Assembly: GCA_964396145.1 (NCBI GenBank)
Contig: CAYNEE010000003.1
Location: 1-58,534 of the forward strand
Source of the DNA: an uncultured Gammaproteobacteria bacterium
GTDB taxonomy: Bacteria; Patescibacteriota; Microgenomatia; UBA12405
DNA: 58,534 nucleotides
Reading direction: 5' to 3'
In this document: in pieces, positions 1 to 57,996 of the stretch
Position numbering within the stretch: position 1 is the first letter of the stretch
Layout of the letters: each line of letters begins with the position of its first letter
Made by a program: the position numbers and the translations under genes
Notes under the pieces: generated by a model
The model's database searches: none
Seen by the model: only the letters and a program-made list of their open reading frames with translations
What the model was told of the DNA's origin: nothing

Positions 1-1014
1 CTTGATTTATCTGGGGTCAAATTAGTTCCCGACATTTTTGGTCTGAGCAAAAAAAGAATTGAACTTATTGAGGAAAACCTTCCGGAAAATTTTCACAGTC
101 AGCCTGCCCCCAACCGGGATATTCTCAGTCGCCTGAAAAACTTTTTAAACAAGAAACAAGTTTTATCTGACTATAATTTTCTTTTTTACCTCAGTGACGG
201 CTCTTCACCCTTTCTTTTTTCCAAAAAAAATTTTCTCCATGTTCAGGTTCCTTTTGTCACTAAATTCAATTCTTCCGAAAAATTTTTGAATTCTCTTAAG
301 GCTCGTTTTATTGACAAGGTTATCTGCAATTCTCAATTCACCTCTAAATTCCTAACCTCTTTTCCTGAAAATAAAATAACTGTTCTGTATCCTCCGGTAG
401 ATGTTGCCAAACTGGAGGGGGATGTAGACAAACAAAAAATAATCCTATCTGTAGGACGTTTTGACAATATCCTCAATGCCAAAAAACAGGATGTTCTCAT
501 TGAGGCTTTTATTAAGTTTTATAAAAAATCCCCCAAAACTGACTGGAAACTAGTTCTGGCTGGAGGTAGTCGGGAAGTTCCTGAAAAGAACAATTATTTG
601 ATTCATCTCCAGGAAATGGCTAAAGACTACCCTATTCATTTTGTCGTCAATCCCTCTTTTGAGGAATTAAAAAAGATATATGCCCGCTCCTCAATTTACT
701 GGCATGCTGCTGGTTTTGAGGTTGATGAATACCTTACTCCTGAGCAAACCGAACATTTTGGTATGACTGTGGTTGAGGCTATGGATTCTGGTCTCGTCCC
801 CCTGGTCGTCGCCAAGGGTGGTCTCACTGAAATTGTTGATAATGAAAAAAATGGTTTTCTATGGCAAACTATCGACGAGTTGGCTGCCAAGACACATCTG
901 TTAATTGCTACCCCCAAGACCCTCATGGAAATGTCTGAGAAAGCTCACGAAAGTGCCCAGGCTTTTTCCAAAGAAGTCTTTGCCGAAAGATTACTAAAAC
1001 TCATCAGGTCATGA
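1..1014 (+). CDS. GT4-family (GT-B) glycosyltransferase, 5' end cut by the window edge
   Basis: Frame 1 is open from nt 1, with no stop before the TTG at 286 used by the ORF track. The C-terminal motif EHFGMTVVEAMDSGLVPLVVAKGGLTEIV is typical of GT4 enzymes. Confidence 0.8.
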   Translation, partial: LDLSGVKLVPDIFGLSKKRIELIEENLPENFHSQPAPNRDILSRLKNFLNKKQVLSDYNFLFYLSDGSSPFLFSKKNFLHVQVPFVTKFNSSEKFLNSLKARFIDKVICNSQFTSKFLTSFPENKITVLYPPVDVAKLEGDVDKQKIILSVGRFDNILNAKKQDVLIEAFIKFYKKSPKTDWKLVLAGGSREVPEKNNYLIHLQEMAKDYPIHFVVNPSFEELKKIYARSSIYWHAAGFEVDEYLTPEQTEHFGMTVVEAMDSGLVPLVVAKGGLTEIVDNEKNGFLWQTIDELAAKTHLLIATPKTLMEMSEKAHESAQAFSKEVFAERLLKLIRS

Positions 1015-1883
1015 GAATTTCTCTGGTTGTTACTAATTGGAACGGTCTTGATTTGCTTAAAAAAAATCTTACCGAAATTATAGAAAAATCACCCGAAGTC
1101 TTAGAGATAATTGTTGCCGATGATGCTTCTACCGACCAGTCCCTGCCCTTTATTAAAAATCTCCAAAAGAAGTATCCCAAACTCACTTATCTAAAACACT
1201 CTCAAAACGTTGGTTTTGGTCGAAACCTTAATTCTGCCGTTAAAAAATCAAAAGGGGACTTAGTCGTAATTTTAAACAATGATATCCGCCCCCATAAAAA
1301 CTACATTAAAAACTCTCTCTCTCATTTTAAAGATCCAAAGGTCTTAGGTGTCACTTTTGCTGAGCTGGGCAACGAAAATTATGCCCGTTTTTTTTGGAAA
1401 CAGGGTTATCTCCAATTTGAAAAGGGCCGCTCTCAAAAGACTCACATTTCCGGTTGGCTCAATGGCGGCACCTCCATTGTTCGCAAAGATTATTTTCTAA
1501 AACTAGGTGGTTTTGATCACGTGTACGAGCCCTACTACTTTGAGGACTCAGATTTTGGTTTCCGTGCGTGGAAATCAGGCTATACTCTTCTTTGGGAGCC
1601 AAAAGCTGTGGTTGAGCACAAGCACGAATCTACCATGTCCCGACTTCCCAAAAAACATTTAATTTATGTCAAAGAGAGAAATCACTTAATTTTTACCAAA
1701 AGGAACATTACCAACAAGAGTCTTTTGTTCAAAAACAAAATTTTTTCTTTTCTTCGCATCCTTTCCGGTCCTAATTATTTAAAAATAATTCTTGCCGCCC
1801 GCCGTCAACTCAAAAAATACCCTGCCCCCATCGTCTTTCCCAAACGCACCGATATAGAGATTTTGAGAATGTTTAAAAAATGA
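1011..1883 (+). CDS. GT2-family glycosyltransferase (WbbL/rhamnosyltransferase-like subtype)
   Basis: Motifs ISLVVTNWNG, IIVADDASTDQS, NVGFGRNLNSAV, ILNNDI and EDSDFGFRAW. ATGA overlap with the upstream gene. Confidence 0.8.
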   Translation: MRISLVVTNWNGLDLLKKNLTEIIEKSPEVLEIIVADDASTDQSLPFIKNLQKKYPKLTYLKHSQNVGFGRNLNSAVKKSKGDLVVILNNDIRPHKNYIKNSLSHFKDPKVLGVTFAELGNENYARFFWKQGYLQFEKGRSQKTHISGWLNGGTSIVRKDYFLKLGGFDHVYEPYYFEDSDFGFRAWKSGYTLLWEPKAVVEHKHESTMSRLPKKHLIYVKERNHLIFTKRNITNKSLLFKNKIFSFLRILSGPNYLKIILAARRQLKKYPAPIVFPKRTDIEILRMFKK

Positions 1884-3193
1884 AATCATTTACCAATGTT
1901 TGGAAAATCTTGTTGATTATTTTTTTTTCCCTCCTATTAAGAATTTTTCTATCAAACGTCACTGTTCCTGTTGGCGATATTTTGGTTCACCAGGAATGGG
2001 CTAAAAGTTTATATCAAGAGGGGACCCGGGGTTCATATTTTCGTGAAGGCTGGACATATTCTCCGCCGACTCAACCATCACTCATGATGCTGGCTTATTC
2101 AGGCTCAAGATCAATTTATGAAAACAGAAATGTATTTTCTGCTATGCACAATCTTTTAAAAATTCCCCCTGCCTCTGTTTTATTGGGTTTTCAAAAATAT
2201 GGTCAAATTTTAACTTTGAAAATCTGGGAATTTTTAGCAACTCTAATTATCGCCTTCGTTTTCTATTTTTATTTTTCCAACCAAAAGTCATCAAAAATTG
2301 GTCTAATAATTTTTACTTTAATTTTATTTCACCCCATCTTAATTTTTACAAATTCCGTTTGGGGACAAAATGATTTGATACCGACCATGTTTGCTTATAT
2401 CTCCTTTCTTTTAATTTTTTCAAAGTACATTTACTATTCACCCATCATTTTTTTCTTGGGGGTTTTATTTAAGCCAACAATAATAGTTCTAACACCATTA
2501 TTTGCCATTGTATTTTTATTTTTCTATTTTAAAAACAAAAAAAATTTTTTAATCCTATTACCAATCATGTTGATAATCACAAGCTTTCTCTATCTTTCTT
2601 TTAAACCATTTATACCTACAGGGATTTCTCCTATTAATTACGTTCGAGACATTTACAATCACCGCATTAGTAATTCCTCAAAAGGATTAAATTTAGCCTC
2701 AGTTTCGGCTTTCAATCTTTATTCTTTATTATTTAACATCGATAAAACCTATGCCACTAAAACTCCACTGATCAGCATAGGTCTGCTCCTTTATATCCTG
2801 ATAAATGTAGTTTTCATTTATCATTTTTTAAAATCTAAAAATCATAGTTTTTCTCATTTACTTTTTACGATTTATTTTCTAGGCCAAGGCAGTTTTTTAC
2901 TTTTAACTAATATGTTAGAAAGATATTTTTTCCCGGCACTTTTAGCGAGCATTTTGATAATGGTTTTATATTGGAAAAAGTTTGGTCGGCTTATGCTTTT
3001 ACAACAATTAATTTGGTTTTTGAATTTAATTTACGCCTATTACCATCGTCAAAGCGAATTTATTAGTTATGTTTTCAAAGAAAATAACTTCATCTTTGTT
3101 CGTTTGTTGTCTTTTTGTAGTTTGCTAATTTTTTTCTTATTGACCAAAAAATATTTAATTTTAGTCAAATTTAAAAATGAAAAATTTTCTTAG
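1880..3193 (+). CDS. Polytopic GT-C-type membrane glycosyltransferase, HERY-motif family (Gpi18/ALG6-ALG8-like, COG5542-like), paralogue A
   Basis: More than 10 hydrophobic segments. Loop-1 motif GDILVHQEW, then YSPPTQPSLMMLAY, WGQNDLIPTMFAY and C-terminal NMLERYFFPALL. The same motif order occurs in 3177-5225 (C-terminal half) and 6864-8150. Confidence 0.55.
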   Translation: MKSFTNVWKILLIIFFSLLLRIFLSNVTVPVGDILVHQEWAKSLYQEGTRGSYFREGWTYSPPTQPSLMMLAYSGSRSIYENRNVFSAMHNLLKIPPASVLLGFQKYGQILTLKIWEFLATLIIAFVFYFYFSNQKSSKIGLIIFTLILFHPILIFTNSVWGQNDLIPTMFAYISFLLIFSKYIYYSPIIFFLGVLFKPTIIVLTPLFAIVFLFFYFKNKKNFLILLPIMLIITSFLYLSFKPFIPTGISPINYVRDIYNHRISNSSKGLNLASVSAFNLYSLLFNIDKTYATKTPLISIGLLLYILINVVFIYHFLKSKNHSFSHLLFTIYFLGQGSFLLLTNMLERYFFPALLASILIMVLYWKKFGRLMLLQQLIWFLNLIYAYYHRQSEFISYVFKENNFIFVRLLSFCSLLIFFLLTKKYLILVKFKNEKFS

Positions 3194-5225
3194 TATTATT
3201 ATCCCCACCTGGAATACCGCAGAAATTACTCTAAAATGTGTCCGATCTCTTCAAAAATATCTCAAAAATTTTCCTCACGAAATTATTATCGTTGATAATG
3301 CTTCTACTGATAATACAGTCGCAAAGTTTAAAAAAGAAAAGGGGATTGTCCTCATCCAAAATAAAAAGAACTTAGGTTTTGCTAAAGCCTGCAATATTGG
3401 ATCAAAAAAATCAAAAGGGGATTATCTCTTTTTTCTCAACTCCGACATGATAGCCCTCGATAATAGCCTCATTAAAATGTGCGAATACCTAAAAAATAAC
3501 CCTAAAATAGGCCTTATTGGTCCAAAGTATCTTAATATCGACCGATCAGTTCAGGGCTCTGTTTTTCCACCCCAAACTCCTCTTAATGCTTTGAAAGAAT
3601 TTTGGCTGGGAAAAAATGCTTACTCCAAATACTCTCCTCGGTCTAAAAAACCCATCGAAGTCCATTCCCTTTCCGGTGGAGCCATATTAATTTCTAAGAA
3701 GTTGTTTAATGAGGTTGGCGGTTGGGATGAGCGTTATTTTATGTACTTTGAAGACCTAGAACTTTGTCGTCAGATCAAAAAGTTAGGTTATAAAATTTTT
3801 TATTATCCACAGTGTCGCTTCGTCCACCGCCATGGCGCCAGTGGCCAAAAACTGGCTGACTCCAGCAACCAATGGCGTCGACTAGTTCCCAGTTCGAAAA
3901 TTTATCATGGACATCTTACACACTACTATCTCTTTTCAATAACCTGGCTCGCTCAAAAAATCAATAAATTAAACATTAAAAAAATTTTATTACTCGCATT
4001 TATTATAAGATTATTTTTACTTCCATGGATATATCACGGTGATATTACAGTAACTTATTGGTGGGGAAAATTTGCCGCCGAATTCACCTGGAGAGGTTAC
4101 TATGATTGGCTAAATTTTGGCGGATACGGTCGCCCTGACCAACCAATGCTAAATATCTTTTATGTTTGGCTTGTTCGTCTTTTTTATTTACTAGTCCACC
4201 AAATTATTTGGTTTATTAATGTAAATATTCCTGCTTTTCCCTCAAAAATAATGAGCTGGTTTTTCCTGCATGGCAACCAGGTTTTATTGAAACTACCCAT
4301 GATTATTGCGGATACCGCAATTATCTATTTTGTATATTCCTTTGTTAGCAAATCTTTGTCAAAAACTAAAGCAACTTTTGCTGCTATTTTTCTGGCACTT
4401 TATTTACCCATGATTTATAACAGTGCTCTTTGGGGGAGCGGAGATAGTATTATCAATCTCCTGGCTTTACTCGCTATTTATTTCCTTTATCATAAAAAAT
4501 ATCTTCTTTTTACTTTCCTCTTCCTTTGTTCTATTTTGTACAAGTTTTCTCTGGCTATATGGTCACCAGTAATTCTTACAATTCTTATTTATCAACGAAT
4601 TAAACTCGCAGACATTATTAAATCAGTTGGTCTTTCTGTAATTTTTATTTACCTAGTCTCTTTTCCTTTTGCCACAAAAAATCCTTTTATCTGGTTTTGG
4701 GAAACTATAACTCAAAAAATCATGCCCGGTGCAATGCCACAAATTACTTCTAATGCTATGAATTTCTGGGGAGTTATATTTGGATTGAAGCCGCGTCTTG
4801 ATGAAACTTTAGTTTTTAATCTTATTTCTTTTAGACAACTTTCCTTGTTAATTTGTCTAGTTTTTTACATTTATATCTGCGTAAAACTTTATAAAAACTT
4901 CTCCATTAAAAATGTTTTACTAACCCTGGTTCAAATTACTCTGGTAACCTTTACTTTCATGACCCGCATGCACGAGCGATATACCTATCCAGCCCTGATC
5001 CCTTTACTACTTTTATCGCTATATGATCGGAAGTTTTTTAAATACTTTATTATTTTATCTGTCACCCATTGTTTGAACGTATATAATTGGTGGTGGATCC
5101 CCAAAATCCCCTTTCTCATTACTTTACTTAAATCAGAAGTAACTACGAGAATTATTAGCCTAATTCAAACTTTATTAACAATTAGCCTCCTCTCGACAAA
5201 GTTATTTACCTCTAAAAATGAATAA
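3177..5225 (+). CDS. Bifunctional fusion: N-terminal GT2 glycosyltransferase (about aa 1-260) plus C-terminal HERY-motif GT-C membrane glycosyltransferase (about aa 262-682), paralogue B
   Basis: GT2 part: LSIIIPTWNT, IIIVDNASTDNT, NLGFAKACNIG, FLNSDM, FEDLELCRQIKKLGY. GT-C part: NIKKILLLAFIIRLF, HGDITVTYWW, GRPDQPMLNIFYVW, WGSGDSIINLLAL, RMHERYTYPALIPLL. No stop or start codon at the junction. Confidence 0.75.
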   Translation: MKNFLSIIIPTWNTAEITLKCVRSLQKYLKNFPHEIIIVDNASTDNTVAKFKKEKGIVLIQNKKNLGFAKACNIGSKKSKGDYLFFLNSDMIALDNSLIKMCEYLKNNPKIGLIGPKYLNIDRSVQGSVFPPQTPLNALKEFWLGKNAYSKYSPRSKKPIEVHSLSGGAILISKKLFNEVGGWDERYFMYFEDLELCRQIKKLGYKIFYYPQCRFVHRHGASGQKLADSSNQWRRLVPSSKIYHGHLTHYYLFSITWLAQKINKLNIKKILLLAFIIRLFLLPWIYHGDITVTYWWGKFAAEFTWRGYYDWLNFGGYGRPDQPMLNIFYVWLVRLFYLLVHQIIWFINVNIPAFPSKIMSWFFLHGNQVLLKLPMIIADTAIIYFVYSFVSKSLSKTKATFAAIFLALYLPMIYNSALWGSGDSIINLLALLAIYFLYHKKYLLFTFLFLCSILYKFSLAIWSPVILTILIYQRIKLADIIKSVGLSVIFIYLVSFPFATKNPFIWFWETITQKIMPGAMPQITSNAMNFWGVIFGLKPRLDETLVFNLISFRQLSLLICLVFYIYICVKLYKNFSIKNVLLTLVQITLVTFTFMTRMHERYTYPALIPLLLLSLYDRKFFKYFIILSVTHCLNVYNWWWIPKIPFLITLLKSEVTTRIISLIQTLLTISLLSTKLFTSKNE

Positions 5226-6852
5226 AAAAATAACCTTGGTGCTTTTGCTTATTTTCACCTTTTTAATCAGATTTTTGTTTCTTGACAAAAACCCACCCGC
5301 ACTTTTTTTTGATGAAGTTGACGCTGCTTACCAGGCTGAGATTTTTAACATGCAGCAAGGTGACTATTTTGGCAATAAGTATCCCGTCCATTTTCATTCC
5401 TTAGCTGATTGGCGCACTCCTTTATATATCTACTCTGTTTCTCTAGTCAAAACCGTTGTTAACCACCCGGAGATATCAGTTCGCCTTCCATCAGTCATTT
5501 TTAGCACTCTTTCGGTTTATTTCTTTTACCTTTTGACAAATTCATTTTTAGCTACCGCCCTCTTTAGTCTCAACCCTTGGTCCATACATTACGGACGCAG
5601 CGCTTTTGAAGTCTCAGGAATGCTTATGGCTCTTTTGGGAGGTTTCTATTATCTTAAAAAATATTTTACTAATTATCATCTTTTTTATTTATTTCTTTCC
5701 GTTTTATTCTTCATTCTAACGCCATATTTTTATAGTACTAGTAAAGCCTTCTTGGTTTTTTTGGCCCTCGGCATCTTAATCATTTACTGGCATCAATTAA
5801 AAAAAATACCTTTAAAACATTGGTTTATAGGCTTATTTTTATGTATCATTCTTTTAGCTCCACTTGGTCTAGATACACTTAATGGTCGTGCTGGTTTCCG
5901 ATTTTCTTATATAAACATATTTCATGATCCTCATAGTGCTGATAAAGTCAATTTTGAACGTTATAGTGACTATATTTTATCTTCGCCGTCGAGTCTTTTG
6001 TCATCAAAAATAAACCATAATAAAATTACCTTGGTTTTAAATCGCTTTATTAATAATTATTTTTCTGCATTTTCTACTGATTTTCTTTTTATTAGAGGAG
6101 ATAGTAATTCACGCCACGGTTTTGATGGACACGGTCTTTTCTATTATATTGATGCCTTATTAATTATTTTGGGACTGGTTGGTATTTATAAACAAAAAAA
6201 AGTTTCTGAAACGGACAAATTTTTCATTTTTCTACTCATTACTGCGCCTATTCCTTTTTCTTTGACTACTGATTCCACCGGTGGTCATGCCACCCGTTTA
6301 ATTTTAATGCTACCTTCTCTAATCTATCTGGTCTACCGTGGCGCCCTAATTGTTAAAAAAAGTTCCAAACTCCTTTTTAAAATATTGTTACTTGTATATT
6401 TAGTATCTGTATTTCACTTTTACCACTTCTATCGCTATGACTACCCACAGAAAAACGCTATGTACTGGCAAGCCAACGTAAAAGAATCCGTCGAGGCTAC
6501 AAAAAAATACTCTCAGCCAATTTACTTTTCTTCCTTTTATGAATCGTTCTTGCCATTTTTTTTATATTATCAACCCTATCTTCCTGTTGATGCCCCCAGC
6601 CTCCACTTACATCCAGTGGACAGCGACATAATCAGTGGTAGCAGCCTTGACAGCCATTACTTCTTTGGACATATAAAATGGAACAATTTTAATAAGATAT
6701 CCATACCACCAAGTATTTTTGTAGTTCCTGCCACTGAGCTGAGCCAGTTACCTTTAGATAAGAATCAACAACCTCTTCTAAAACAACTTGAATTTATACC
6801 CAAAAAATATATTAACTCACAAGACTTCTATATTTTTAGTTATGAAAAATAA
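5218..6852 (+). CDS. ArnT/PMT-type (PMT_2-like, GT39/GT83-like) GT-C glycosyltransferase, array copy 1
   Basis: Polytopic protein of 544 aa. Loop-1 FFDEVDAAYQAE, VRLPSVIF, FIRGDSNSRHGFDGHG, GGHATRL, and a C-terminal soluble domain. The architecture is shared with the five downstream copies. Confidence 0.7.
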   Translation: MNKKITLVLLLIFTFLIRFLFLDKNPPALFFDEVDAAYQAEIFNMQQGDYFGNKYPVHFHSLADWRTPLYIYSVSLVKTVVNHPEISVRLPSVIFSTLSVYFFYLLTNSFLATALFSLNPWSIHYGRSAFEVSGMLMALLGGFYYLKKYFTNYHLFYLFLSVLFFILTPYFYSTSKAFLVFLALGILIIYWHQLKKIPLKHWFIGLFLCIILLAPLGLDTLNGRAGFRFSYINIFHDPHSADKVNFERYSDYILSSPSSLLSSKINHNKITLVLNRFINNYFSAFSTDFLFIRGDSNSRHGFDGHGLFYYIDALLIILGLVGIYKQKKVSETDKFFIFLLITAPIPFSLTTDSTGGHATRLILMLPSLIYLVYRGALIVKKSSKLLFKILLLVYLVSVFHFYHFYRYDYPQKNAMYWQANVKESVEATKKYSQPIYFSSFYESFLPFFLYYQPYLPVDAPSLHLHPVDSDIISGSSLDSHYFFGHIKWNNFNKISIPPSIFVVPATELSQLPLDKNQQPLLKQLEFIPKKYINSQDFYIFSYEK

Positions 6853-6863
6853 GATTGTGTAAT

Positions 6864-23515: not shown

Positions 23516-23539
23516 TTGCTAAAATTGTGGCAGGTATTT

Positions 23540-36816: not shown

Positions 36817-36817
36817 T

Positions 36818-37585: not shown

Positions 37586-37591
37586 ACGCTT

Positions 37592-38604: not shown

Positions 38605-38610
38605 TATAAT
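38605..38610 (+). promoter_or_regulatory. TATAAT hexamer 11 nt upstream of the 38622 start codon (possible -10 element, giving a very short leader)
   Basis: Seen in the 35-nt divergent gap 38587-38621. There is no clear -35 element, and TATAAT is common by chance in AT-rich DNA. Confidence 0.2.
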
Positions 38611-38621
38611 CAGTCATAAAT

Positions 38622-40843: not shown

Positions 40844-40845
40844 CT

Positions 40846-46635: not shown

Positions 46636-46642
46636 TTCTGTC

Positions 46643-47754: not shown

Positions 47755-48650
47755 ACAGTCCGCTTTTATCAATCATCATCGCCTCCTTCAACACTTCAAA
47801 GCTGACTCAGGATTGCCTTGATTCCATTCGTCTGGACAAAGGCCTTAAAGACATCCCCCACGAAATTATTGTCATTGACAACGGCTCTAGTGATGATTCG
47901 GTCAAAATGCTAAAAAAGCAAAAAAATATAAAACTTATATTAAACCATCAAAATAAAGGGTTTGCTCAAGCCAACAACCAAGGGATTAAAGCCGCGAAAG
48001 GCAATTATTTGCTCTTTCTCAACTCTGACACAATTATCCTTCACTCTGCTATCAGCCAAAGCCTAAACTGGCTCTCAGCCCATCCCGAAGCCCATGGCTG
48101 CACCGCTCAACTGCTAAACCCCGACAAAAGTATTCAACCTACCGGTGGCTACTTTCCTAACTTGCTAAATATTTTTACTTGGTCTCTGGGACTTGATGAT
48201 TTACCTCTCGTCAACAAAATTATCAAACCCTTTCATCCTCACCCGCCTTGGTTTTATACCCGGGATTCATTTTACAAATCCGATCATTCTCAGGACTGGC
48301 TCACCGGCGCCTTTTTTTTAGTCAGAGCCTCAATCGTCAATGAAACTCAGGGTTTTGATGAAAATTATTTTATGTACGGTGAAGAAATGGAATGGCAATA
48401 TCGGATGCATCTTAAACTTCCCGATTCCAAACTTTGGTATTTAGTCGGTCCTCAGATTATTCATCTGGGCGGAGCTTCAGCTCTTAAAAAAAGCGACCCC
48501 CTTTTAAACGAGTATAAGGGAGTTTTGGCTTTTTTTAAAAAACATCGTCCCCTTTGGCAGACTAAATTTGTTAAAAAGATATTACAACTTAATGCTCTTT
48601 TACGTGGTTTTGTTTCCCAAAACCATCGACAACTATGGTCAAAAATTTAA
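47751..48650 (+). CDS. GT2-family glycosyltransferase (WbbL-like subtype)
   Basis: ATG at 47751 in an ATGA overlap. Motifs LLSIIIASFNT, IIVIDNGSSDDS, NKGFAQANNQGI, FLNSDT and GEEMEWQYRM. Confidence 0.8.
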   Translation: MNSPLLSIIIASFNTSKLTQDCLDSIRLDKGLKDIPHEIIVIDNGSSDDSVKMLKKQKNIKLILNHQNKGFAQANNQGIKAAKGNYLLFLNSDTIILHSAISQSLNWLSAHPEAHGCTAQLLNPDKSIQPTGGYFPNLLNIFTWSLGLDDLPLVNKIIKPFHPHPPWFYTRDSFYKSDHSQDWLTGAFFLVRASIVNETQGFDENYFMYGEEMEWQYRMHLKLPDSKLWYLVGPQIIHLGGASALKKSDPLLNEYKGVLAFFKKHRPLWQTKFVKKILQLNALLRGFVSQNHRQLWSKI

Positions 48651-50017: not shown

Positions 50018-51243
50018 CCACTAACAAAAAACGTAAAATTCTAATGATTACTCCTTACATTCCTCGTTTATCTCAGTCAGGTGGTCAGAGATCTTCTTAT
50101 TACTCCATTAAATACCTAGCTCCAAAAAACGATATTACCCTTATTTGTTTTAGCCGGGACGAAGAGGGCGTAAAAGATGTTCGCCAGTACTGCCGCAAAG
50201 TAATCGTTGTCAAACGCGGTAAAACCTGGGATCTTAAAAAAATTTTCTCGGCCGCTATTAGTCCCTATCCTTTTTTAGTTATCAACTATATTTCGGACGA
50301 CTTTAAAAAGGCCATTCAAAGAGAACTAGATAGAGAAAAATTTGATCTCATTCATTGTGATTGTTTTTACCCTATGCCTAACATTCCTAAAACCGATATC
50401 CCGGTTGTCCTGGTGGATCTGACCATCGAATACGCCGTTTATGATCACTACGTCAAAAGTCTTACTGGCTTCAAAAAACTTTTAACCCCAATTCTCTCCA
50501 TAGACGTTAAAAAAATGAAACACTGGGAAACCTATTACTGGAAAACTACCCACACTGTTGTTGCCTTTGGACTGGAAGATCAAAAGATAATCACTGAAAC
50601 CACCGGCCGCAAAGATATCCAGTACTTTGAGAATGGAGTCGACCAAAAGTATATTGACGCCCCTCTAAAAACTCCCAAATCCCAAGAACCAACCATCCTT
50701 TTTGGAGTCTCTAATATGAAATGGATGCAAAACCGCGAATCCGTCGAGTTGATTATGAGTCACTACTGGCACAAAATTAAAAAAGCGGTACCTAATTGTA
50801 AGCTCTATATTGTCGGCCGCTTCGCTCCTGAATTTTTTGGTAAATATGCTTCTAAAGATGTCATCGTCACTGAAGCTGATTTCGACGGTCAACCCAAAGA
50901 CCCCCAATACTACTACCAGTACTGTTGGTTACTTCTAGCCCCGATGGGTAGCGGTGGCGGTACTAGAAACAAATTTTTGGAAGGCATGACCTTTGGCTTA
51001 CCGGTAATTACTACACCTGAAGGCGGTATGGGTAGTATCAAATTCAAAAACTTTCGCGATGCCATCGTCACTCCCGGCAAAGACATTCTTAAAAACGTTA
51101 TTAAATTGATAAATGATAAAAAATACCGCCAAACCATCGGTAACAATGGTCGTAAACTGATTGTCAATAATTACTCCTTTGCCAAATGCGTTGAAGGTCT
51201 CAATCAAATCTATGAAGACATCACCCAAAAACAAAAAAGTTGA
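50014..51243 (+). CDS. GT4/GT-B-fold glycosyltransferase
   Basis: N-terminal ILMITPYIPRLSQSGGQRSSY, C-terminal GSGGGTRNKFLEGMTFGLPVITTPEG. Confidence 0.7.
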   Translation: MTTNKKRKILMITPYIPRLSQSGGQRSSYYSIKYLAPKNDITLICFSRDEEGVKDVRQYCRKVIVVKRGKTWDLKKIFSAAISPYPFLVINYISDDFKKAIQRELDREKFDLIHCDCFYPMPNIPKTDIPVVLVDLTIEYAVYDHYVKSLTGFKKLLTPILSIDVKKMKHWETYYWKTTHTVVAFGLEDQKIITETTGRKDIQYFENGVDQKYIDAPLKTPKSQEPTILFGVSNMKWMQNRESVELIMSHYWHKIKKAVPNCKLYIVGRFAPEFFGKYASKDVIVTEADFDGQPKDPQYYYQYCWLLLAPMGSGGGTRNKFLEGMTFGLPVITTPEGGMGSIKFKNFRDAIVTPGKDILKNVIKLINDKKYRQTIGNNGRKLIVNNYSFAKCVEGLNQIYEDITQKQKS

Positions 51244-52171
51244 TCTTTCGGTGATTATCGTTAATTACAATACCGGCGACTACCTTTTAAAGTGTCTTAA
51301 AAGCCTTAAAAAATCTATTTTAGGTAAATATCATGTTGAAGTCATTATTGCCGACAATAATTCAAGCGATAACAGCTTTGTTTTGGCCAAAAGTATTAAA
51401 ACCAGTCAAAAAATTAACTTTATTTTTAAAAAACTTTCCAAAAATTTCGGTTTTTCTAAGGGCAACAATCTAGCCCTCAAACTGAGCCACCCTAATTCCA
51501 AATATGTACTTTTTCTCAACCCTGACACCACCCTTGATCCAAAAACCTTGTTCAAGATGATTAATTTTTTTAAAACTCATCCCAAAGTCGATGCTGCTAC
51601 CGCCAATCTAATTCTGGTCAAAAGCGGTAAAACCCAACCTGAGTCTCATCGTGGCTTTCCTGGTCCTTGGAATGCTTTTTGTCATTTTTTTACCCCCTTT
51701 CTCCCTAAGTTTTTCCCTAAAAGTCACCTTTTCAACGGCTACTTTTTAGGTCACCTTGATTTTTCTAAAATTCAAAAAATTGAGGCCTGTGTTGGCGCCT
51801 TTCTTATGATCAAAAGAGAAGTTGGGAAAACTATTGGCTGGTGGAATGAAAAATATTTTTTCTACGGCGAAGATCTTGACCTCTGTTGGCAGCTAAAAAA
51901 ACACGGATTTAATCTTTATTTCTATCCTCACGCCAAAGCCTATCATTATCAGGGTATTTCTTCAGGTCTTATCGATCATACTCAAACAATCACTCAAGCA
52001 AAAATTAATACCAAGGTCGTCGCCGCCAAGGCCAGTACCGAAGCTATGCGGATTTTTTACCGGGAAAACCTCATTGACCGCTACCCTCAATTTTTCCAAC
52101 CTCTAATCTGGACCGGCATAGATTTTCTTGAAAAATACCGTATTCACAAGGCCAAAAAACATGAAAGCTAA
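51212..52171 (+). CDS. GT2-family glycosyltransferase (WbbL-like subtype)
   Basis: ATG at 51212 (MKTSPKNKKVDLSVIIVNYNT). Motifs IIADNNSSDNS, NFGFSKGNNLAL, FLNPDT and GEDLDLCWQLKKHGF. Confidence 0.8.
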   Translation: MKTSPKNKKVDLSVIIVNYNTGDYLLKCLKSLKKSILGKYHVEVIIADNNSSDNSFVLAKSIKTSQKINFIFKKLSKNFGFSKGNNLALKLSHPNSKYVLFLNPDTTLDPKTLFKMINFFKTHPKVDAATANLILVKSGKTQPESHRGFPGPWNAFCHFFTPFLPKFFPKSHLFNGYFLGHLDFSKIQKIEACVGAFLMIKREVGKTIGWWNEKYFFYGEDLDLCWQLKKHGFNLYFYPHAKAYHYQGISSGLIDHTQTITQAKINTKVVAAKASTEAMRIFYRENLIDRYPQFFQPLIWTGIDFLEKYRIHKAKKHES

Positions 52172-53294
52172 AAAACATATCGTCATTGATGCCCGTCTCT
52201 ATGGCCCAAAGCACACAGGTCTCGGTCGTTACACTAAAAACCTTTTAGTTGCCCTTAAAAAACAGCCGGATTTTGACACCTTTCATTACACCCTCCTTGT
52301 CTATCCTGAATTAGAAAAGGAAGTTAAAGATGACCTTGGGGATTCTTTTGATTATTTTGTCACTAATGTTCGTCACTATACTCTCAAGGAGCAATTTATA
52401 CTGCCAATTCTCCTTCATCGTCTCCGGCCTGACTTGGTCCACTTTACTCATCTGGATAAACCTATTTTTTATTTTAAAAAATCACTGGTCACTGTCCATG
52501 ATTTAATCCGCCACTTCTCCAAAGGTAAAGAAACTACCACTAGAAATCCATTTCTTTATTGGCCGAAATACTGGGGATATCTTCTTATGACCCGAATAAT
52601 TCTTTTAAACAGTTTTGTCATTGTTCCCAGTGACTTTTGGCGTCAGTATATTATCAAACACTACCGCTTTCCCCCTGAAAAAATTATTGTCACTCACGAA
52701 GCTGTCGATCCAGTGTTTATAAAAAATTTTTCTAAAAAAACTAAGGATAGTAAATTGAAGATTGAAGATTATATTCTGTATACTGGCAATCTTTATCCTC
52801 ATAAAAATGTTCAGGTAATTTTTGAAGCCCTTAAAAGCCTTCCTAAAATAAAACTCAAAATTATCTGTGCCCGCTCAGTCTTTACTGACAAAATTTATGC
52901 CAAAATCAGACAAAGCGGCCTAGGTAAACAAGTCGACTTTTTAGGCTATGTTCCTGACTCCGAATTTACCTCACTCTATCAACATGCCCTTGCCTTGGTT
53001 CATCCGGCACTGCTTGAAGGTTTCAGTCTTACGGGCTTAGAAGCTATGGCTCTGAATTGCCCGGTTATTGCTGCTAGAGCTAGCTGTTTACCGGAAATTT
53101 ATCAAGATGCCGCCCTCTTTTTTGATCCCCATGACCCAAACGACCTAGTCGAAAAAATTAAACTACTCATAGATTCTCCTGATCTTCGGGATAAACTAAT
53201 TAAAACCGGACAAGAACATTTTAAAAAATACAATTGGTTATCCACCGCCCGGCAAAGCTTGGATTTTTATAATCGTATTACTCATGTCTCTTAA
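52161..53294 (+). CDS. GT4-family glycosyltransferase
   Basis: ATG at 52161 (MKAKKHIVIDARLYG). Motif EGFSLTGLEAMALNCPVIAARASCLPEI. Confidence 0.8.
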   Translation: MKAKKHIVIDARLYGPKHTGLGRYTKNLLVALKKQPDFDTFHYTLLVYPELEKEVKDDLGDSFDYFVTNVRHYTLKEQFILPILLHRLRPDLVHFTHLDKPIFYFKKSLVTVHDLIRHFSKGKETTTRNPFLYWPKYWGYLLMTRIILLNSFVIVPSDFWRQYIIKHYRFPPEKIIVTHEAVDPVFIKNFSKKTKDSKLKIEDYILYTGNLYPHKNVQVIFEALKSLPKIKLKIICARSVFTDKIYAKIRQSGLGKQVDFLGYVPDSEFTSLYQHALALVHPALLEGFSLTGLEAMALNCPVIAARASCLPEIYQDAALFFDPHDPNDLVEKIKLLIDSPDLRDKLIKTGQEHFKKYNWLSTARQSLDFYNRITHVS

Positions 53295-54330
53295 AGTTGC
53301 TATTTACTACGATTGGTTAAACCAATGGGGCGGAGCCGAAAGAGTCCTTCTAGACATTCTTAAACTTTATCCCCAAGCCGACCTTTATACTCTCGACTAC
53401 AGTCCCCAAAAAACTCCCTGGCTACCAAAAACTCATCGGGTTTTTTCCCTTAATCTTAAAAACAAGCTAGTTTATACTCCTTTTTATAGTTATCGCCTGG
53501 AACAAATTGACTTTTCCAACTACGACCTATTAATTTCCACCACTTCCCATGTCGGCCATTCTTTTCTAACTCTGCCCAAAACCTTCTATCTCTGCTATTT
53601 TCACAACATCAACCGCTATCTCTACCAACTTCCACCTCCCATTCTTAAAAAAGTTCTTAAGCTTTATCAAAAAACCGATTTTATTTATGCTCAGCGCCCT
53701 GATGCTATTTTTTGCAATTCCAAAACAGTAGCAAACCGCATTCAAAAAAACTACCATAGACAAGCCAGAGTGATTTATCCCGGCATTGATACAGACAAAT
53801 TTATCCCTGGACTCAAAAAATCCCAAAATTATTTTCTTTTAGTTTCCCGTCTGGTCAAACATAAAAAAATTGATATCGCTATTAAAGCTTTTAAAAAATT
53901 AAACTACCCTCTAAAAATAGTTGGTTCCGGCCGTGACCAGAAGTATTTTGAAAAGCTTGCTGACAATCATCCTCACATTCAATTTTTAGGCCCGGTTCCC
54001 GAGTCAAAACTTATTAATCTTTATCAAAACAGTCAGGGCTTAATCCACCCGCAGTTTGAAGATTTTGGCCTAACCGCACTTGAGTCCATGGCCTGTGGCA
54101 GGGGAGTCATCGCCTACAATCGTGGCGGGGCTACCGAAACTATAATTAACGGTAAAACAGGAATTTTATTTAATCATCAACACCCAGATTCTCTTGTCCT
54201 GGCAATCAAAAAATACCTAAAAAAAATACCTCTAAGTTCTGATTGTCGCCGCCAAGCTCTGAGATTTAGTCAAAAGAACTTTATGTTACACTTTAGACAA
54301 GAGCTCAACTCTCTATGCACTACATTGTAA
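53284..54330 (+). CDS. GT4-family glycosyltransferase
   Basis: VAIYYDWLNQWGGAERVLLDI at the N-terminus and EDFGLTALESMACGRGVIAYNRGGATE. Confidence 0.8.
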   Translation: MSLKVAIYYDWLNQWGGAERVLLDILKLYPQADLYTLDYSPQKTPWLPKTHRVFSLNLKNKLVYTPFYSYRLEQIDFSNYDLLISTTSHVGHSFLTLPKTFYLCYFHNINRYLYQLPPPILKKVLKLYQKTDFIYAQRPDAIFCNSKTVANRIQKNYHRQARVIYPGIDTDKFIPGLKKSQNYFLLVSRLVKHKKIDIAIKAFKKLNYPLKIVGSGRDQKYFEKLADNHPHIQFLGPVPESKLINLYQNSQGLIHPQFEDFGLTALESMACGRGVIAYNRGGATETIINGKTGILFNHQHPDSLVLAIKKYLKKIPLSSDCRRQALRFSQKNFMLHFRQELNSLCTTL

Positions 54331-55388
54331 TCCTCTCCGGAGGCACCGGACCTAGACTCTGGCCACTTTCTCGGGTCGAAAAGCCCAAACAATTCCTGAC
54401 TCTCTTTTCTAAAAATTCCCTCTTAAAAGAAACTGTCCTTCGCGCCAAAAAACTTGTCCCTCTCAAAAATATTTTTATTGTCACCAACTACAAATACACA
54501 AGTCTTATTAAAAAAGACCTTGGCACCTCTTTCCCCTCTGCCAATATTCTCTCCGAACCACAAAAAAAGAATACGGCCATGGCCCTCATCTACGCCTCGG
54601 CAGTTATTTCCCGCAAAGACCCCGATGCCGTTATCACTAGTTTCCCTTCTGACCACTATATCGGCCGTCTTGACAAATTCATTAAAAATATTAATCAGGG
54701 TGTTAATACTAGTTTAACCAATAAAATTGTCGTCTACGGCATTAAGCCCGACTCTCCCAACCCTGCCTACGGTTATATCGTCACTGACGATAAACTAAAA
54801 GTTAAAAAATTCATCGAAAAACCTAGCATTTCTATTGCCCAGGATATTATTAATCGAGGTCACGCTTTTTGGAATAGTGGTATTTATACCTTTAAAGTTT
54901 CACATCTATTAAGTGAATTTAAAAAACACCAACCCGAATATTTACCTCTATATGACCAAATTTATAATCAGCCCACAAAAAGCAAAATTATCCAGAAAAT
55001 TTACAGTCTTGCCCCAGCATTGGCCCTGGATGTAGCTATTTCTGAAAAATCAAAAAATCTTCATCTCATCCCAGCCACCTTTACTTGGAGCGACATTGGG
55101 GAGTGGTCGGCTATTCACCGTCAAATTGCCGGTAAAAAAACTCAAGTAGCCACTTTAACCACCACCCAAAAACTAGTCGAAATTAACTCCAAAAATTGTC
55201 TAGTCCATTCTTCACCTAAAAAAATTATCGGTTTAGTCAATGTTGAAGATGTCGCTGTCATCGATACTCCAGATGCACTTTTAGTTTGCAATTTAAAAAA
55301 CAGTGGCTCCTACCAGGTCAAAGATCTCATTACTAAATTGGTTTCTAACCCTAAATTAAAATCTTTTTTTACCGGTAAGCATGACTAG
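54315..55388 (+). CDS. manC: Mannose-1-phosphate guanylyltransferase-like sugar nucleotidyltransferase (no C-terminal isomerase domain)
   Basis: VILSGGTGPRLWPLSRVEKPKQFL, EPQKKNTAMAL, FPSDHYI and WSDIGEW. Confidence 0.75.
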   Translation: MHYIVILSGGTGPRLWPLSRVEKPKQFLTLFSKNSLLKETVLRAKKLVPLKNIFIVTNYKYTSLIKKDLGTSFPSANILSEPQKKNTAMALIYASAVISRKDPDAVITSFPSDHYIGRLDKFIKNINQGVNTSLTNKIVVYGIKPDSPNPAYGYIVTDDKLKVKKFIEKPSISIAQDIINRGHAFWNSGIYTFKVSHLLSEFKKHQPEYLPLYDQIYNQPTKSKIIQKIYSLAPALALDVAISEKSKNLHLIPATFTWSDIGEWSAIHRQIAGKKTQVATLTTTQKLVEINSKNCLVHSSPKKIIGLVNVEDVAVIDTPDALLVCNLKNSGSYQVKDLITKLVSNPKLKSFFTGKHD

Positions 55389-56046
55389 TAGAAATATCCC
55401 TTTTTATGCCCTAAGGTCAGCTCTTTTTGACCCCATCAAACGGATAATAGACATTATCAGCTCTGTAATTTTAATAATTATTTTTTCTCCAGTTTTACTG
55501 ATAACTGCCATTATTATCAAACTCACCTCTCCGGGGCCGATAATTTTCAAGCAAAAACGCGTTGGTCAAAACCGAGAGTTTCAAATGTTTAAATTTCGTT
55601 CCATGAGAGTAGGGGACAACGATAAATTTTTAAAAGAAAATTATCCCGAACTTTGGAAAAAATATAAAGCCAATGACTGGAAACTTTCAGCCAAAGAAGA
55701 TCCTCGAATTACTCCCATCGGTCGTTTTATCCGCTCTACTTCTATTGACGAAATGCCTCAATTTTTAAATGTTCTTATGGGAGAAATGAGTCTGGTCGGC
55801 CCCCGGGCCTATCGTGACGAAGAGCTTAAAGAATATTCCCATAAATACCCTAAAACCAAAGCCTACATTGCCGATATCCGTTCCGTTAAGCCTGGTATTA
55901 CCGGCCCATGGCAAGTCTCAGGCCGAAACGAACTCCCCTTTGAAAAACGGGCCAAAATGGACTCTGATTACATCAAAAATCGATCACTTAGAGAGGAAAT
56001 CTATATTATCTTCAAAACTCCCTTCGCCATGTTTTCTAACTGGTAA
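55381..56046 (+). CDS. Small monotopic polyprenyl-phosphate phosphoglycosyltransferase (PglC/WbaP C-terminal 'bacterial sugar transferase' type); initiating enzyme
   Basis: KRIIDIISSVILIIIFSPVLLI (re-entrant helix), SPGPIIFKQKRVGQNREFQMFKFRSM and DEMPQFLNVLMGEMSLVGPRA. Confidence 0.9.
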   Translation: MTSRNIPFYALRSALFDPIKRIIDIISSVILIIIFSPVLLITAIIIKLTSPGPIIFKQKRVGQNREFQMFKFRSMRVGDNDKFLKENYPELWKKYKANDWKLSAKEDPRITPIGRFIRSTSIDEMPQFLNVLMGEMSLVGPRAYRDEELKEYSHKYPKTKAYIADIRSVKPGITGPWQVSGRNELPFEKRAKMDSDYIKNRSLREEIYIIFKTPFAMFSNW

Positions 56047-56067
56047 CATCCGTGCTAGAATTAAAAC

Positions 56068-57996
56068 ATGGAAATTCCTGCTGCTCTCACCCCTAAACAG
56101 AAAAAGGTTGTTATTAAAAAATCTCCCCATAGATTACCCAAAATTTTACTGATTATTTTAGCGGTTATACTTGGTTTGGGAGTTCTCAGCTTCTTTTTTC
56201 TTTATCTTCCGGCTATAGCCCTGGTCAAAGAAGTCAATCAAACCAAAACCGTCGCCGACCGACTTAAAGTCTCACTATCGGATAAAGACCTCAATCAAAG
56301 CAAGCAGGTTATGACAGAGCTGCGTGAACAAATTAAAGAGGTAGATAAAAAACTCAATTTAATGGCCTATCTTCGGGCTATTCCGGTAGCTAACAATTAT
56401 TATAAAGATGCCAAAACCCTAATCAAAGTCGGCAACGACTCCCTTGATACTGGTGATATTTTAATTCAAGCCGCAGAGCCTTATGCTGATTTTTTGGGAC
56501 TAAAAGGTGCTGGTACCAGCAGCGCTCAAACTACCGAAGACAGAATTAATTTTTTAACTCAATCTATCGAAAGTATCCTCCCACACTTTGACACTATTAA
56601 CAGCAAAGTTACTGAAATTGACCAGCTTTTGGCTACGATTAATATCAATCGCTATCCGGAAACCTATAAAGACATTCAGGTCCACCAAAGCTTTAATAAA
56701 ATCAGGGAAATGGTGGGCGAATTTCAAAATTACGTCAGTAACGGTAAACCAATCCTTAGCAAAAGTTCCTGGCTTTTGGGTAAAGACAAGCCCCGAAACT
56801 ACCTGGTTATCTTTCAAAACGATGCCGAACTGCGTCCCAGTGGTGGTTTTTGGACAGCCTATACTACCCTCAAAGTCGATAAGGGTAAGATTACTGCCGG
56901 ATCTTCGAGTAATATTTATGATTTAGATGATAAAATTTCCAGCACTACTCCGGCTCCTCGACTCATCAAGTCTTATCACGTCAATGTTCCTTACCTCAAT
57001 CTTCGGGACTCCAACCTTTCCCCGGATTTTCCCACAGATGCCAAAATTTTTCTCGATCAGTATTACAAAGTTATGGGAAAAAGAACCGAATTTGACGCCG
57101 TCATTGCCCTGGATACCAAAATTCTCGTCGACATTATTAAAGTTTTGGAAAAAGTCGATACTCAAGTTGGTACCTTTACCGCCAAAGAGGATAGTCGCTG
57201 TAATGGCTGTCCCAATATTATCTATGAACTAGAGTGGATTGCCGGTCGTCCCCGTAATTTCATTCTTGCTGATCGGAAAGGTTTTCTAGGTCCAGTTATG
57301 CATGCGATTTTAGCCAATGCCATGGGTTCAGAAAAAACCAAAATTGCACCTCTTGCCAGTGCTTTCTTTACCAACTTAAATGAAAAACACGTTCTTTTTT
57401 ACTTCACTGACCCTGAAATCCAAAAAGCTGCCGAACAGGCCAATATCGCTGGACACATTACCCAAACTTCAGAGAATATCGATTATTTTCATCTAAACGA
57501 TGCTAACTTTGCCAGCGCCAAAAGTAATTTATTTATTACTCAAAAAATTCTTCACGAAATTGACAGTAAAAGTGACCATGTCAAACATAAATTCACTATT
57601 ACTTACACCAACCCCTTCAAAGCCTCTAACTGTAATTTAGAAAAAGGGGATTTGTGTCTTAATGCTGCCGCCTACAGAAACCTCTTTAGAATTTACACTC
57701 CCATTGGCAGTAAATTGGAAAAAATTACCGGCTCCGAAGTTGAACCCCAACAATACGAAGAGCTAGGAAAGCAGGTTTTTGAAGGTTTTTATGGTAACAA
57801 ATATCCCCTTTATGCTAATTCCAGCAGTAAAGTTACTGTCGAGTACACCTCATCAGTCAAACCCAGCAAAGACTATACTCTACTCCTACAAAAACAACCC
57901 GGAACTAAAGCCGTCGACTACGAGCTTAAAGTCAATGGCCGCACCGTTGATACTTTTTCCTGGGTAGCTGATAAAACTATCAAATTAGCTCTCTAA
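56068..57996 (+). CDS. DUF4012-domain protein (N-terminal TM anchor, large extracytoplasmic domain)
   Basis: Single N-terminal TM helix (ILLIILAVILGLGVLSFFFL) and the core motif VIFQNDAELRPSGGFWTAYT. It lies directly after the sugar transferase. Confidence 0.65.
   Translation: MEIPAALTPKQKKVVIKKSPHRLPKILLIILAVILGLGVLSFFFLYLPAIALVKEVNQTKTVADRLKVSLSDKDLNQSKQVMTELREQIKEVDKKLNLMAYLRAIPVANNYYKDAKTLIKVGNDSLDTGDILIQAAEPYADFLGLKGAGTSSAQTTEDRINFLTQSIESILPHFDTINSKVTEIDQLLATININRYPETYKDIQVHQSFNKIREMVGEFQNYVSNGKPILSKSSWLLGKDKPRNYLVIFQNDAELRPSGGFWTAYTTLKVDKGKITAGSSSNIYDLDDKISSTTPAPRLIKSYHVNVPYLNLRDSNLSPDFPTDAKIFLDQYYKVMGKRTEFDAVIALDTKILVDIIKVLEKVDTQVGTFTAKEDSRCNGCPNIIYELEWIAGRPRNFILADRKGFLGPVMHAILANAMGSEKTKIAPLASAFFTNLNEKHVLFYFTDPEIQKAAEQANIAGHITQTSENIDYFHLNDANFASAKSNLFITQKILHEIDSKSDHVKHKFTITYTNPFKASNCNLEKGDLCLNAAAYRNLFRIYTPIGSKLEKITGSEVEPQQYEELGKQVFEGFYGNKYPLYANSSSKVTVEYTSSVKPSKDYTLLLQKQPGTKAVDYELKVNGRTVDTFSWVADKTIKLAL

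Follow-up and report, generated by a model that had tools for sequence, protein, structure and literature searches.

How three glycan-assembly routes could operate from a single bacterial locus that encodes no recognisable Wzx flippase is the question raised by positions 1 to 58,534 of contig CAYNEE010000003.1, the whole 58,534-bp stretch of DNA analysed here and called the window. A preliminary description had placed a PglC/Wzy_C route, a Wzm/Wzt exporter, and a branch of lipid-phosphate-linked sugars (lipid-P-sugars) with GT-C glycosyltransferases side by side in one very dense locus. This arrangement stands, as a PglC-type phosphoglycosyltransferase (PGT), a Wzy_C protein, Wzm/Wzt with a dual-GT2 enzyme and a UPF0104 protein are all present, and our Pfam and NCBIfam scans put every named feature at or within 3 bases of where it had been placed. 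The anomalous look of the locus is very probably an artefact, because the window starts inside a conserved block that carries a Wzx gene further upstream in relatives. We consider it likely that the window contains ~58 kb of a locus for cell-envelope glycan that spans at least ~69 kb in a Candidatus Shapirobacteria bacterium, and that this locus is a composite of known modules and not a pathway that dispenses with Wzx.

The window is filled almost completely by genes. According to the listing of open reading frames (ORFs), it holds 52 complete or edge-cut genes (g01–g52) and the start of recO, with most genes on the + strand, several strand switches, and many neighbours that overlap by a few bases. 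With the longest ORFs taken, coding sequence makes up 99.7% of the window and no gap exceeds 43 bases, in agreement with the earlier remark that almost no non-coding DNA is present; Rfam and tRNA scans found no tRNA or Rfam family in the window. All window proteins were scanned against Pfam, and NCBIfam profiles were used in addition. Nine GT4 genes and 12 GT2 genes with 13 GT2 domains were assigned by Pfam, and the total number of glycosyltransferase (GT) domains in the window is 33–34.

The lack of a flippase is very probably a property of the window and not of the locus. No protein within positions 1–58534 has a MOP/Wzx match in Pfam. However, g01, a GT4 enzyme (1..1014, + strand; Pfam Glycos_transf_1, E 8e-22), is cut at its 5' end by the window edge, its frame being open from base 1. 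An independent contig (L001) that is 99.8% identical to window 1–3592 reaches 1.15 kb further upstream, where it encodes the rest of g01 (392 amino acids (aa) at full length), a 255-aa GT2, and the end of another GT2. Thus, the window start is no locus boundary. Homologs of the 255-aa GT2 with 90–91% identity lie on long contigs of relatives (L016 and L018–L022) in one common block, the order of which is PMT_2, GT2, PMT_2, an unknown protein (569–572 aa), Wzx (482 aa), a second unknown protein (544 or 994 aa), GT2 (311 aa), GT2 (305 aa), GT2 (255 aa), g01 (392 aa), and g02 (290 aa). In this block, g01 and g02 are 90–91% identical to the window proteins; g02 is a GT2 enzyme (1011..1883, +; Pfam E 1.5e-23) with 90% aa identity in L016 and L019. 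More distant Shapirobacteria (L013 and L014) possess the same block at 53–66% identity. The flippase is 482–484 aa long across relatives, and the 482-aa protein, when scanned again, matched Polysacc_synt_3 (E 8e-46) and Polysacc_synt (E 5e-27).

A MOP/Wzx flippase is present in all eight of the relatives with enough upstream sequence (L013, L014, L016, and L018–L022). By synteny with these eight, the Wzx gene of the window's own strain very probably lies ~5.7–7.2 kb upstream of window base 1, and the locus is at least ~69 kb long if the upstream block is counted. The preliminary description, which had reported no Wzx, was correct for the window and very probably mistaken for the locus; it had also held that a recognisable Wzx nearby would speak against its reading, and one is found there, at least by synteny. 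We also note that the protein just downstream of Wzx varies in length among close relatives, with forms of 994 aa and 544 aa (L016 5152–8136 versus L018/L019 ~6500–8136). The unknown proteins flanking Wzx in relatives have no Pfam match and no GT-C signal.

The flippase bears directly on another explanation, in which a Wzx-independent pathway resembling mycobacterial lipomannan/lipoarabinomannan (LM/LAM) synthesis or O-mannosylation would make a short primer inside the cell and build the bulk of the glycan outside, using GT-C enzymes and polyprenyl-P-monosaccharides flipped by the UPF0104 protein. The preliminary description had seen such a likeness. What stands of it is the extracytoplasmic use of polyprenyl-P-sugars by GT-C enzymes, shared with the Ppm1, MptA/MptB, and Pmt systems, together with a PMT-like GT-C family carrying a DE motif (family A, below); for the rest, Gram-positive wall loci are closer. 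The explanation gains from the ratio of 11–12 GT-C genes to one PGT, from at least one and probably two GT2 proteins resembling polyprenyl-P-sugar synthases, from an LPG_synthase_TM protein and a ManC-like gene, and from the homologs of a second GT-C family (family B, below), which are named Gpi18-like mannosyltransferase and in some cases have weak or faint Alg6_Alg8, MptA_B, or GT87 matches. It loses to the MOP/Wzx gene in the conserved block of the eight relatives, to the standard cytoplasmic repeat-unit set formed by PglC, Wzy_C, and many GT4 and GT2 enzymes, and to the presence of a Wzm/Wzt exporter. Moreover, in the Pfam and NCBIfam scans of the window there is no match to a phosphatidylinositol-anchored start of the PimA/PimB type, to arabinan synthesis (decaprenyl-phosphoarabinose formation by UbiA/DprE; Emb/Aft), or to MIR domains, and AftA is merely a fold neighbour of g28. 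We regard this Wzx-independent explanation as quite improbable.

The other end of the locus identifies both its boundary and its host. When the DUF4012 protein g52 was used as a query with one genome per species, the single close relative was L011, a 534,577-bp contig of a Candidatus Shapirobacteria metagenome-assembled genome (MAG). In L011, g41–g52 occur in the same order with 80–91% aa identity (80–88% for g41–g44, 82–91% for g46–g49, and 88% for g52). Because this block is followed by recO and an aminoacyl-tRNA synthetase both in L011 and in the window's own species, the downstream boundary lies at DUF4012/recO. The recO gene itself (57996..58534, +) is cut by the window edge and was recognised from its translation and from RecO_N on the identical gene in L008. 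The host is a member of Candidatus Shapirobacteria within the Candidate Phyla Radiation (CPR; Patescibacteria), and the earlier suspicion of a CPR-like host is borne out by this closest genome. In the closest MAG, a single contig of 534,577 bp carries the two end blocks, the 5' block being located via the longest contig of the P0128 cluster and the 3' block via L011; L016, which covers the 5' block in window gene order, stands for that place in the closest MAG.

Strain variants at g03 and inside g04, and the fragmented short-read contigs of the species, none of which exceeds 11.5 kb, could raise the suspicion that the assembly joined different strains or unrelated loci into a chimeric window. 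However, four segments of the window (1–3910, 3195–11891, 27186–39221, and 49781–58534) were assembled independently from other samples at 97–100% identity and in the same order, and relatives cover both ends in order. For the segment 27186–39221 the identity is 99–100% with gene order kept, including the order g24–g26 in contigs L037–L043. The assembly is non-chimeric where this can be tested, and an assembly artefact is most improbable.

With the flippase placed upstream, the genes can be arranged into three routes. The first would begin on undecaprenyl pyrophosphate with g51, a small PglC-type PGT (55381..56046, +; Pfam Bac_transf, E 1e-61) that covers the catalytic domain alone of NCBIfam EPS_sugtrans and is the predicted initiating polyprenyl-phosphate phosphoglycosyltransferase. 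Extension would be carried out by the GT4 and GT2 enzymes of g38–g49. In the first part of this stretch (42781..48650, +; Pfam and NCBIfam), GT4 enzymes are encoded by g38, g40, and g41 and a GT2 by g44, alongside a DUF192 protein (g39), a WcaF-like hexapeptide acetyltransferase (g42) that could O-acetylate the product, and a 181-aa protein of unknown function (g43). The second part (50014..54330, +; Pfam) consists of g46 (GT4), g47 (GT2), g48 (GT4), and g49 (GT4). The chain would then be flipped by the MOP/Wzx protein encoded upstream and polymerised or ligated by g45, a Wzy_C-family membrane protein (48635..50017, +). Its Wzy_C match is just above the cut-off (33.5 bits versus 31.7 in Pfam), and it has no PDB sequence match. 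The Wzy_C family mixes ligases and polymerases and also takes in O-oligosaccharyltransferases (O-OTases), and g45 could be any of the three.

The second route would make a separate chain for ABC-dependent export. The permease g24 (28201–29001, +) matches ABC2_membrane and Wzm/KpsM, and the ATPase g25 (29003–29749, +) matches ABC_tran and TagH/Wzt in Pfam and NCBIfam. The end of g25 is overlapped by g26 (29716–31605, +), which contains two GT2 domains (174.7 bits over two stretches in Pfam) and is predicted to be the adjacent multi-domain polymerising GT of this route. Methyltransferases encoded nearby are possible terminators or decorators of the exported chain.

The third route would supply polyprenyl-P-sugars. 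Its best candidate synthase is g33 (37912–38589, −), a soluble GT2 of 225 aa without transmembrane segments (TMs), for which the best NCBIfam profiles (AglJ, PpgS, PgfS, and ArnC) all score below curated cut-offs and the best PDB matches are GtrB (E 7e-9) and ArnC. Immediately downstream is g32 (37592–37915, −), a DUF2304 protein of 107 aa with three TMs (Pfam PF10066, E 1e-16), the start of which overlaps the g33 stop by 4 bases. The two make up a GacI/GacJ-type pair, and synthase activity is predicted. In the described pair, GacI synthesises GlcNAc-P-undecaprenol and is bound and stimulated by the DUF2304 protein GacJ (bioRxiv 10.1101/180810), and PpgS/Rv3632, the mycobacterial analogue, and WpsA/WpsB stand in the same relation (bioRxiv 10.1101/180810; PMC10821137). 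A second, weaker candidate is g14 (17872–18678), which has no TM and matches PpgS/PgfS best in NCBIfam, below curated cut-offs; it is probably a polyprenyl-P-sugar synthase as well. As such, the two DPM1/GtrB-like GT2 enzymes of the preliminary description are where it had put them, with g14 the less certain of the two. Flipping in this branch could be performed by the upstream Wzx or by g37, an LPG_synthase_TM protein (formerly UPF0104; 41833..42756, −; Pfam E 5e-29) that has no PDB or NCBIfam match and whose family makes it a candidate flippase for lipid-linked sugars. The 11–12 GT-C enzymes would then use these sugars to decorate exported glycans or link them together, with surface proteins as possible further targets.

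Precursors for these routes are suggested by g35 and g36 (39551..41814, −), which score above the curated NCBIfam cut-offs as Ugd (UDP-glucose 6-dehydrogenase) and GalE (TIGR01179, 435 bits), and by g50 (54315..55388, +; Pfam), a ManC-like sugar-1-phosphate nucleotidyltransferase without a PMI domain that gives a partial NCBIfam match to GMP_PMI. They would provide UDP-GlcA, UDP-Gal, and GDP-Man. No window protein was assigned to RmlA–D of dTDP-rhamnose synthesis, g36 being GalE and not RmlB or RmlD.

The GT-C enzymes form the most conspicuous part of the locus, and all-vs-all BLASTP resolves two paralog families among them. Family A has six members, g05 (5218..6852, +; 26–32% identity to g07–g11 by BLASTP) and the tandem genes g07 (8110–9738), g08 (9735–11363), g09 (11224–12903), g10 (12881–14521), and g11 (14406–16058), all on the + strand and PMT/PMT_2-like. 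Pairwise identity is 26–37% in the family and 27–37% among g07–g11. Pfam matches to PMT or PMT_2 are above the cut-off for g07, g09, and g11 and below it for g08; g05 and g10 are tied to the PMT family only via their paralogs, and g10 itself has a weak Agl23 match in NCBIfam. A D42-E43 pair in the first loop is invariant across the family alignment. We interpret family A as PMT/ArnT-like GT-C enzymes with a PMT or PMT_2 domain and a loop-1 DE motif, and the acceptor may be protein or glycan. The overlaps between g08 and g09 (140 bases, 11224–11363) and between g10 and g11 (116 bases, 14406–14521) arise because the first TTG was taken as the start codon, and the true starts of g09 and g11 are probably further downstream.

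Family B has three members: g03 (1880..3193, +), which matches g06 and the C-terminal half of g04 by BLASTP and is a strain-variable cassette; the C-terminal 420 residues of g04 (3177..5225, +); and g06 (6855..8150, +; BLASTP and hhalign). The family has no Pfam match in the window proteins. Its profile aligns with that of family A over the N-terminal core (95% probability, E 3.5e-8 in hhalign), and its PDB match to GPI mannosyltransferase 1 is weak (E 0.03). Hundreds of stand-alone homologs of ~425 aa occur in Shapirobacteria, where the JGI name is Gpi18-like mannosyltransferase. We had considered g03 and g06 as candidates for Wzx or Wzy, and BLASTP, hhalign, and homolog names rule this out, since both belong to family B. 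The gene g04 encodes a fusion of a cytoplasmic GT2 (aa 1–~230) and a family B membrane domain (aa ~233–673), as seen in Pfam and in an AlphaFold (AF2) model with a pLDDT of 95.3; its membrane domain returned no match of its own by fold, the top 50 Foldseek matches being all to the GT-A domain. Other fusions of GT2 and GT-C are found repeatedly in Patescibacteria, where PMT, PTPS_related, or YfhO domains are involved.

Two further membrane proteins may extend this list. The N-terminal domain of g22 (25466..27196, −), which is a membrane domain followed by C-terminal TPR repeats matched in Pfam, aligns with family A (87.6% probability, E 3.5e-6 in hhalign), and g22 is a probable GT-C. The protein g27 (31598..33544, −), with ~10 TMs and DUF7657 and DUF7654 (Pfam E 2e-75 and 1e-27), is a suspected GT-C; hhalign, BLASTP, and a PDB sequence search revealed no link to GT-C or YfhO. 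In all, 11 GT-C domains in the window are supported and one further domain is possible, so that the earlier figures of about 30 glycosyltransferases and 10 GT-C domains were right or slightly low.

The remaining GT-C candidate, g28 (33519..35291, −), has 12 predicted TMs and no Pfam match, and five detectable homologs were used in its alignment. Its AF2 model (pLDDT 76, pTM 0.81) has STT3, PglB, and AftA as its sole significant PDB matches in Foldseek (probability 1.0, E 1.7e-4 to 4e-3, TM-score 0.40–0.45). In the family alignment, E127 and D128 of loop 1 are invariant, a C-terminal soluble domain is present, and there is no WWD (WWDxG) motif, an invariant tryptophan standing instead in an R-W-A context. 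STT3 of Pfam was matched by no window protein. The modelled structure argues for a GT-C-fold enzyme whose likeness to STT3/PglB is one of fold only, membership of the PglB/AglB family not being demonstrable. The earlier claim that no PglB/AglB-type oligosaccharyltransferase (OST) is encoded is consequently correct by sequence and less secure by fold and function, as g28 is nearest to STT3, PglB, and AftA and the Wzy_C protein may be an O-OTase. The idea that g28 is the missing Wzx is ruled out by the GT-C fold, the invariant loop-1 ED pair, and the C-terminal soluble domain. The g28 family is very rare, a search of 1.84 billion (1.84e9) protein representatives having yielded 47 clusters at E ≤ 1e-3, and one distant relative is fused to a GT2 domain. 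A homolog with 39% identity (L012) has a methyltransferase, hexapeptide acetyltransferases, a DUF2142 membrane protein, and a GT4 as neighbours. Because this is another glycan cluster, a glycan-related role of the family is supported.

The GT-C array is also where strains differ, as we observed in relatives that are 90% identical at g01/g02 and in the same-species contigs L015 and L002. In those relatives divergence is sharp after g02: g03 is 62% identical or absent, g07 is 42–44% and g08 78% identical, the g06 counterpart is ~50% identical, g04 is split into two separate genes, and in one lineage an inverted PMT-like gene is inserted after g02. In L015, which comes from another sample and is 97% identical to window 3195–11891, a 717-aa YfhO-family GT-C gene replaces g03 exactly (L015 340–2493 versus window 1880–3193), with DNA identity lost from the g02 stop codon up to the start of g04. 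In L002, the sequence departs from that of the window at position 3910, where the GT2 and GT-C parts of g04 meet, and the GT2 encoded there is unfused and 263 aa long. The fusion g04 is in frame, its halves being adjacent and overlapping separate genes in L016 (15170–17226), L013 (9228–11296), and L002, and its junction (~3910–3970) coincides with the strain breakpoint. Recurrence of the fusion in L015 and in a JGI protein of 58% identity shows that it is real. The tandem GT-C array after g02 is a hypervariable segment between conserved blocks and would give rise to strain-specific surface glycans.

A bolder extension is that the GT-C array, the GT2-GT-C fusions, and g28 together constitute a cassette-type generator of surface-glycan diversity in an ultrasmall, probably host-attached organism, with g28 acting as a new OST-like GT-C that moves a preassembled oligosaccharide. 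If this were true, whole-gene swaps such as g03 for YfhO, or fused for split g04, would rewrite the extracytoplasmic branches and alter phage and/or host recognition. We put it forward as an unlikely proposal.

Uneven conservation of this kind, with ends at 80–91% and the GT-C array at 42–78%, could also be expected of a glycan island made of independent neighbouring systems. These could be a protein O-glycosylation system acting on pilins, S-layer, or surface proteins through PMT-like GT-C enzymes and a PglL-like Wzy_C O-OTase, an ABC-exported wall polymer, and an exopolysaccharide (EPS). The strand switches imply several transcription units, and there are streptococcal GtrB/GT-C systems that glycosylate proteins (PMC12041528). 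A separate origin is also suggested by base composition, the GC content being 24–29% at 32–38 kb versus 35–40% elsewhere; this stretch, the lowest in GC, contains g27–g31 and with them the very rare g28, and suggests a separately acquired or fast-evolving cassette. In addition, exact copies of end genes (g02 and g52) were seen only in SRR25436xxx, SRR13001968, and SRR15237811, and those of middle genes (g26 and g28) only in SRR36594xxx and ERR14064xxx, which may reflect module mosaicism between populations or merely fragmentary assemblies. However, intergenic space is near zero over 58 kb, both end blocks share one contig in the closest MAG, and modules of these kinds converge on one polymer in described Gram-positive loci (PMC10821137). 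On balance, a set of independent systems is somewhat unlikely.

The composite reading is best judged against loci in which the same modules have been described together. The lactococcal cell-wall polysaccharide (cwps) locus holds ABC export, a Wzx flippase, a GacI/GacJ pair, and GT-C enzymes in one place (PMC10821137), as does the locus of the streptococcal group A carbohydrate in part (bioRxiv 10.1101/180810). More specifically, the locus shares with cwps of Lactococcus lactis/cremoris (rhamnan and polysaccharide pellicle) an ABC-exported backbone, a chain that is there started by WpsA/WpsB, built by cytoplasmic GTs, and flipped by a protein of the Wzx type (placed upstream of the window by synteny in our case), extracytoplasmic polymerisation and joining of chains by GT-C enzymes, and a strain-variable region (PMC10821137). 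It differs in that there is no rmlABCD or rhamnosyltransferase signature, the PGT is of the PglC type and not TagO, no LytR-CpsA-Psr (LCP) ligase is found in the window, GT-C genes number 11–12 and not ~2–3, the locus is at least twice as long, and the host has the reduced genome of a CPR bacterium. With Streptococcus pyogenes GacI/GacJ/GacK/GacL it shares a soluble GT2 with an immediately downstream three-TM DUF2304 protein (g33/g32), GT-C, and a Wzm/Wzt-type backbone exporter (bioRxiv 10.1101/180810), while it has many GT-C paralogs instead of one and no adjacent GacK-type flippase. The three-component Gtr systems (GtrA/GtrB/GtrC) follow the same logic of a polyprenyl-P-sugar synthase, a flippase, and a GT-C that modifies an exported glycan (PMC11127046, PMC8035078), whereas here GtrA is lacking, the synthase has a DUF2304 partner in place of a C-terminal TM, and GT-C enzymes form a tandem array in which some are fused to GT2. 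Because rml genes and an LCP ligase are absent from the window, the likeness to Gram-positive wall polysaccharide loci is functional and is not one of membership. A literature search for glycan superclusters in CPR bacteria found no paper describing such a locus.

Several points weigh against the composite reading. For the window's own strain, contigs reach just 1.15 kb upstream, and Wzx has been seen in relatives alone. The regions ~11.9–27 kb and 39–46 kb have no independent assembly, and no fetched close relative covers window ~11.7–46 kb; conserved co-occurrence of all modules is therefore shown for the two ends only. A metagenome scan with g26 gave best relatives of 47% identity that share g25 and g26 alone. 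Several GT2 assignments as polyprenyl-P-sugar synthases fall below curated cut-offs, the roles of g37 and g45 are predicted only, the window proteins include no GtrA (PF04138) and leave no intergenic room for one, and no LCP ligase (LytR_cpsA_psr) was matched. Gene families, gene order, host taxon, synteny, and strain variability were observed directly; the substrates, the final acceptor, and any convergence of the routes are predicted, and sequence alone is compatible with one product or several. As noted in the preliminary description, no classical Wzz is encoded, Wzz/GNVR of Pfam having no match among the 52 window proteins. ABC-dependent routes need no Wzz, and its absence is expected for such routes and not unusual for Gram-positive-type loci. 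The DUF4012 protein g52 (56068..57996, +; Pfam), the last gene of the locus, gained no support as a Wzz analogue, with only one TM, which is N-terminal, and no PDB sequence match. In the literature, DUF4012 has been noted in a bifidobacterial EPS cluster and is enriched in CPR and Gram-positive bacteria.

The genes between these modules fit a heavily decorated glycan, with the five methyltransferases (g18, g19, g21, g29, and g30 in Pfam), acetyltransferase, radical SAM enzyme, and ugd, galE, and manC-like genes of the preliminary description all confirmed. Downstream of the GT-C array (16055..19631, +; Pfam, NCBIfam, and hydropathy) lie g12 (GT2), g13 (GT4), g14 (GT2), and g15, a GT2 with two C-terminal TMs. 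They are followed by g16 (19591..21102, +), a B12-binding radical SAM protein (Pfam) whose best match is the hopanoid enzyme HpnJ (NCBIfam E 9e-38, below the curated cut-off); in its glycan-locus setting it may catalyse C-methylation or rearrangement of a sugar. The stretch 21062..25488 contains g17 (GT2, +), g18 (methyltransferase, +), g19 (methyltransferase, −), g20 (GT4, +), and g21 (methyltransferase, +), all by Pfam. The CofD/YvcK-like gene g23 (27126..28157, −; Pfam CofD E 4.5e-40, NCBIfam YvcK-related below cut-off), of a family of UDP-GlcNAc-binding morphogenesis factors, adjoins g22 just ahead of the Wzm/Wzt module. An FkbM-type methyltransferase (g29, +), a methyltransferase (g30, −), and a GT2 (g31, −) occupy 35334..37585 (Pfam), and g34 is a GT2 (38622..39572, +; Pfam). 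Finally, GC skew is negative in all 2-kb bins (−0.09 to −0.33), including the stretches of minus-strand genes, and therefore follows the strand and not the direction of coding; the C-rich strand may carry most genes.

The locus reveals no new export logic. With the window edge corrected, its multi-route design is already known from Gram-positive cell-wall polysaccharides, and the locus stands out for its size within a reduced genome, for a GT-C array that varies like a set of cassettes, for fusions of GT2 with GT-C, and for the rarity of the g28 family. Genomes of CPR/Patescibacteria are ~1 Mb or less, the largest contig of the closest MAG measures 535 kb, and many members of the group are attached to other cells. 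A locus of at least ~69 kb with ~40 GT domains, including the upstream block, would amount to ~7–10% of such a genome and would represent a major commitment to surface glycans, in line with the large investment proposed earlier. The GacI/GacJ-type pair, the GT2-GT-C fusions, and the very rare GT-C-fold family are candidates for study, and cassette swapping at the level of strains suggests that phages or hosts exert selection on the surface of these cells.

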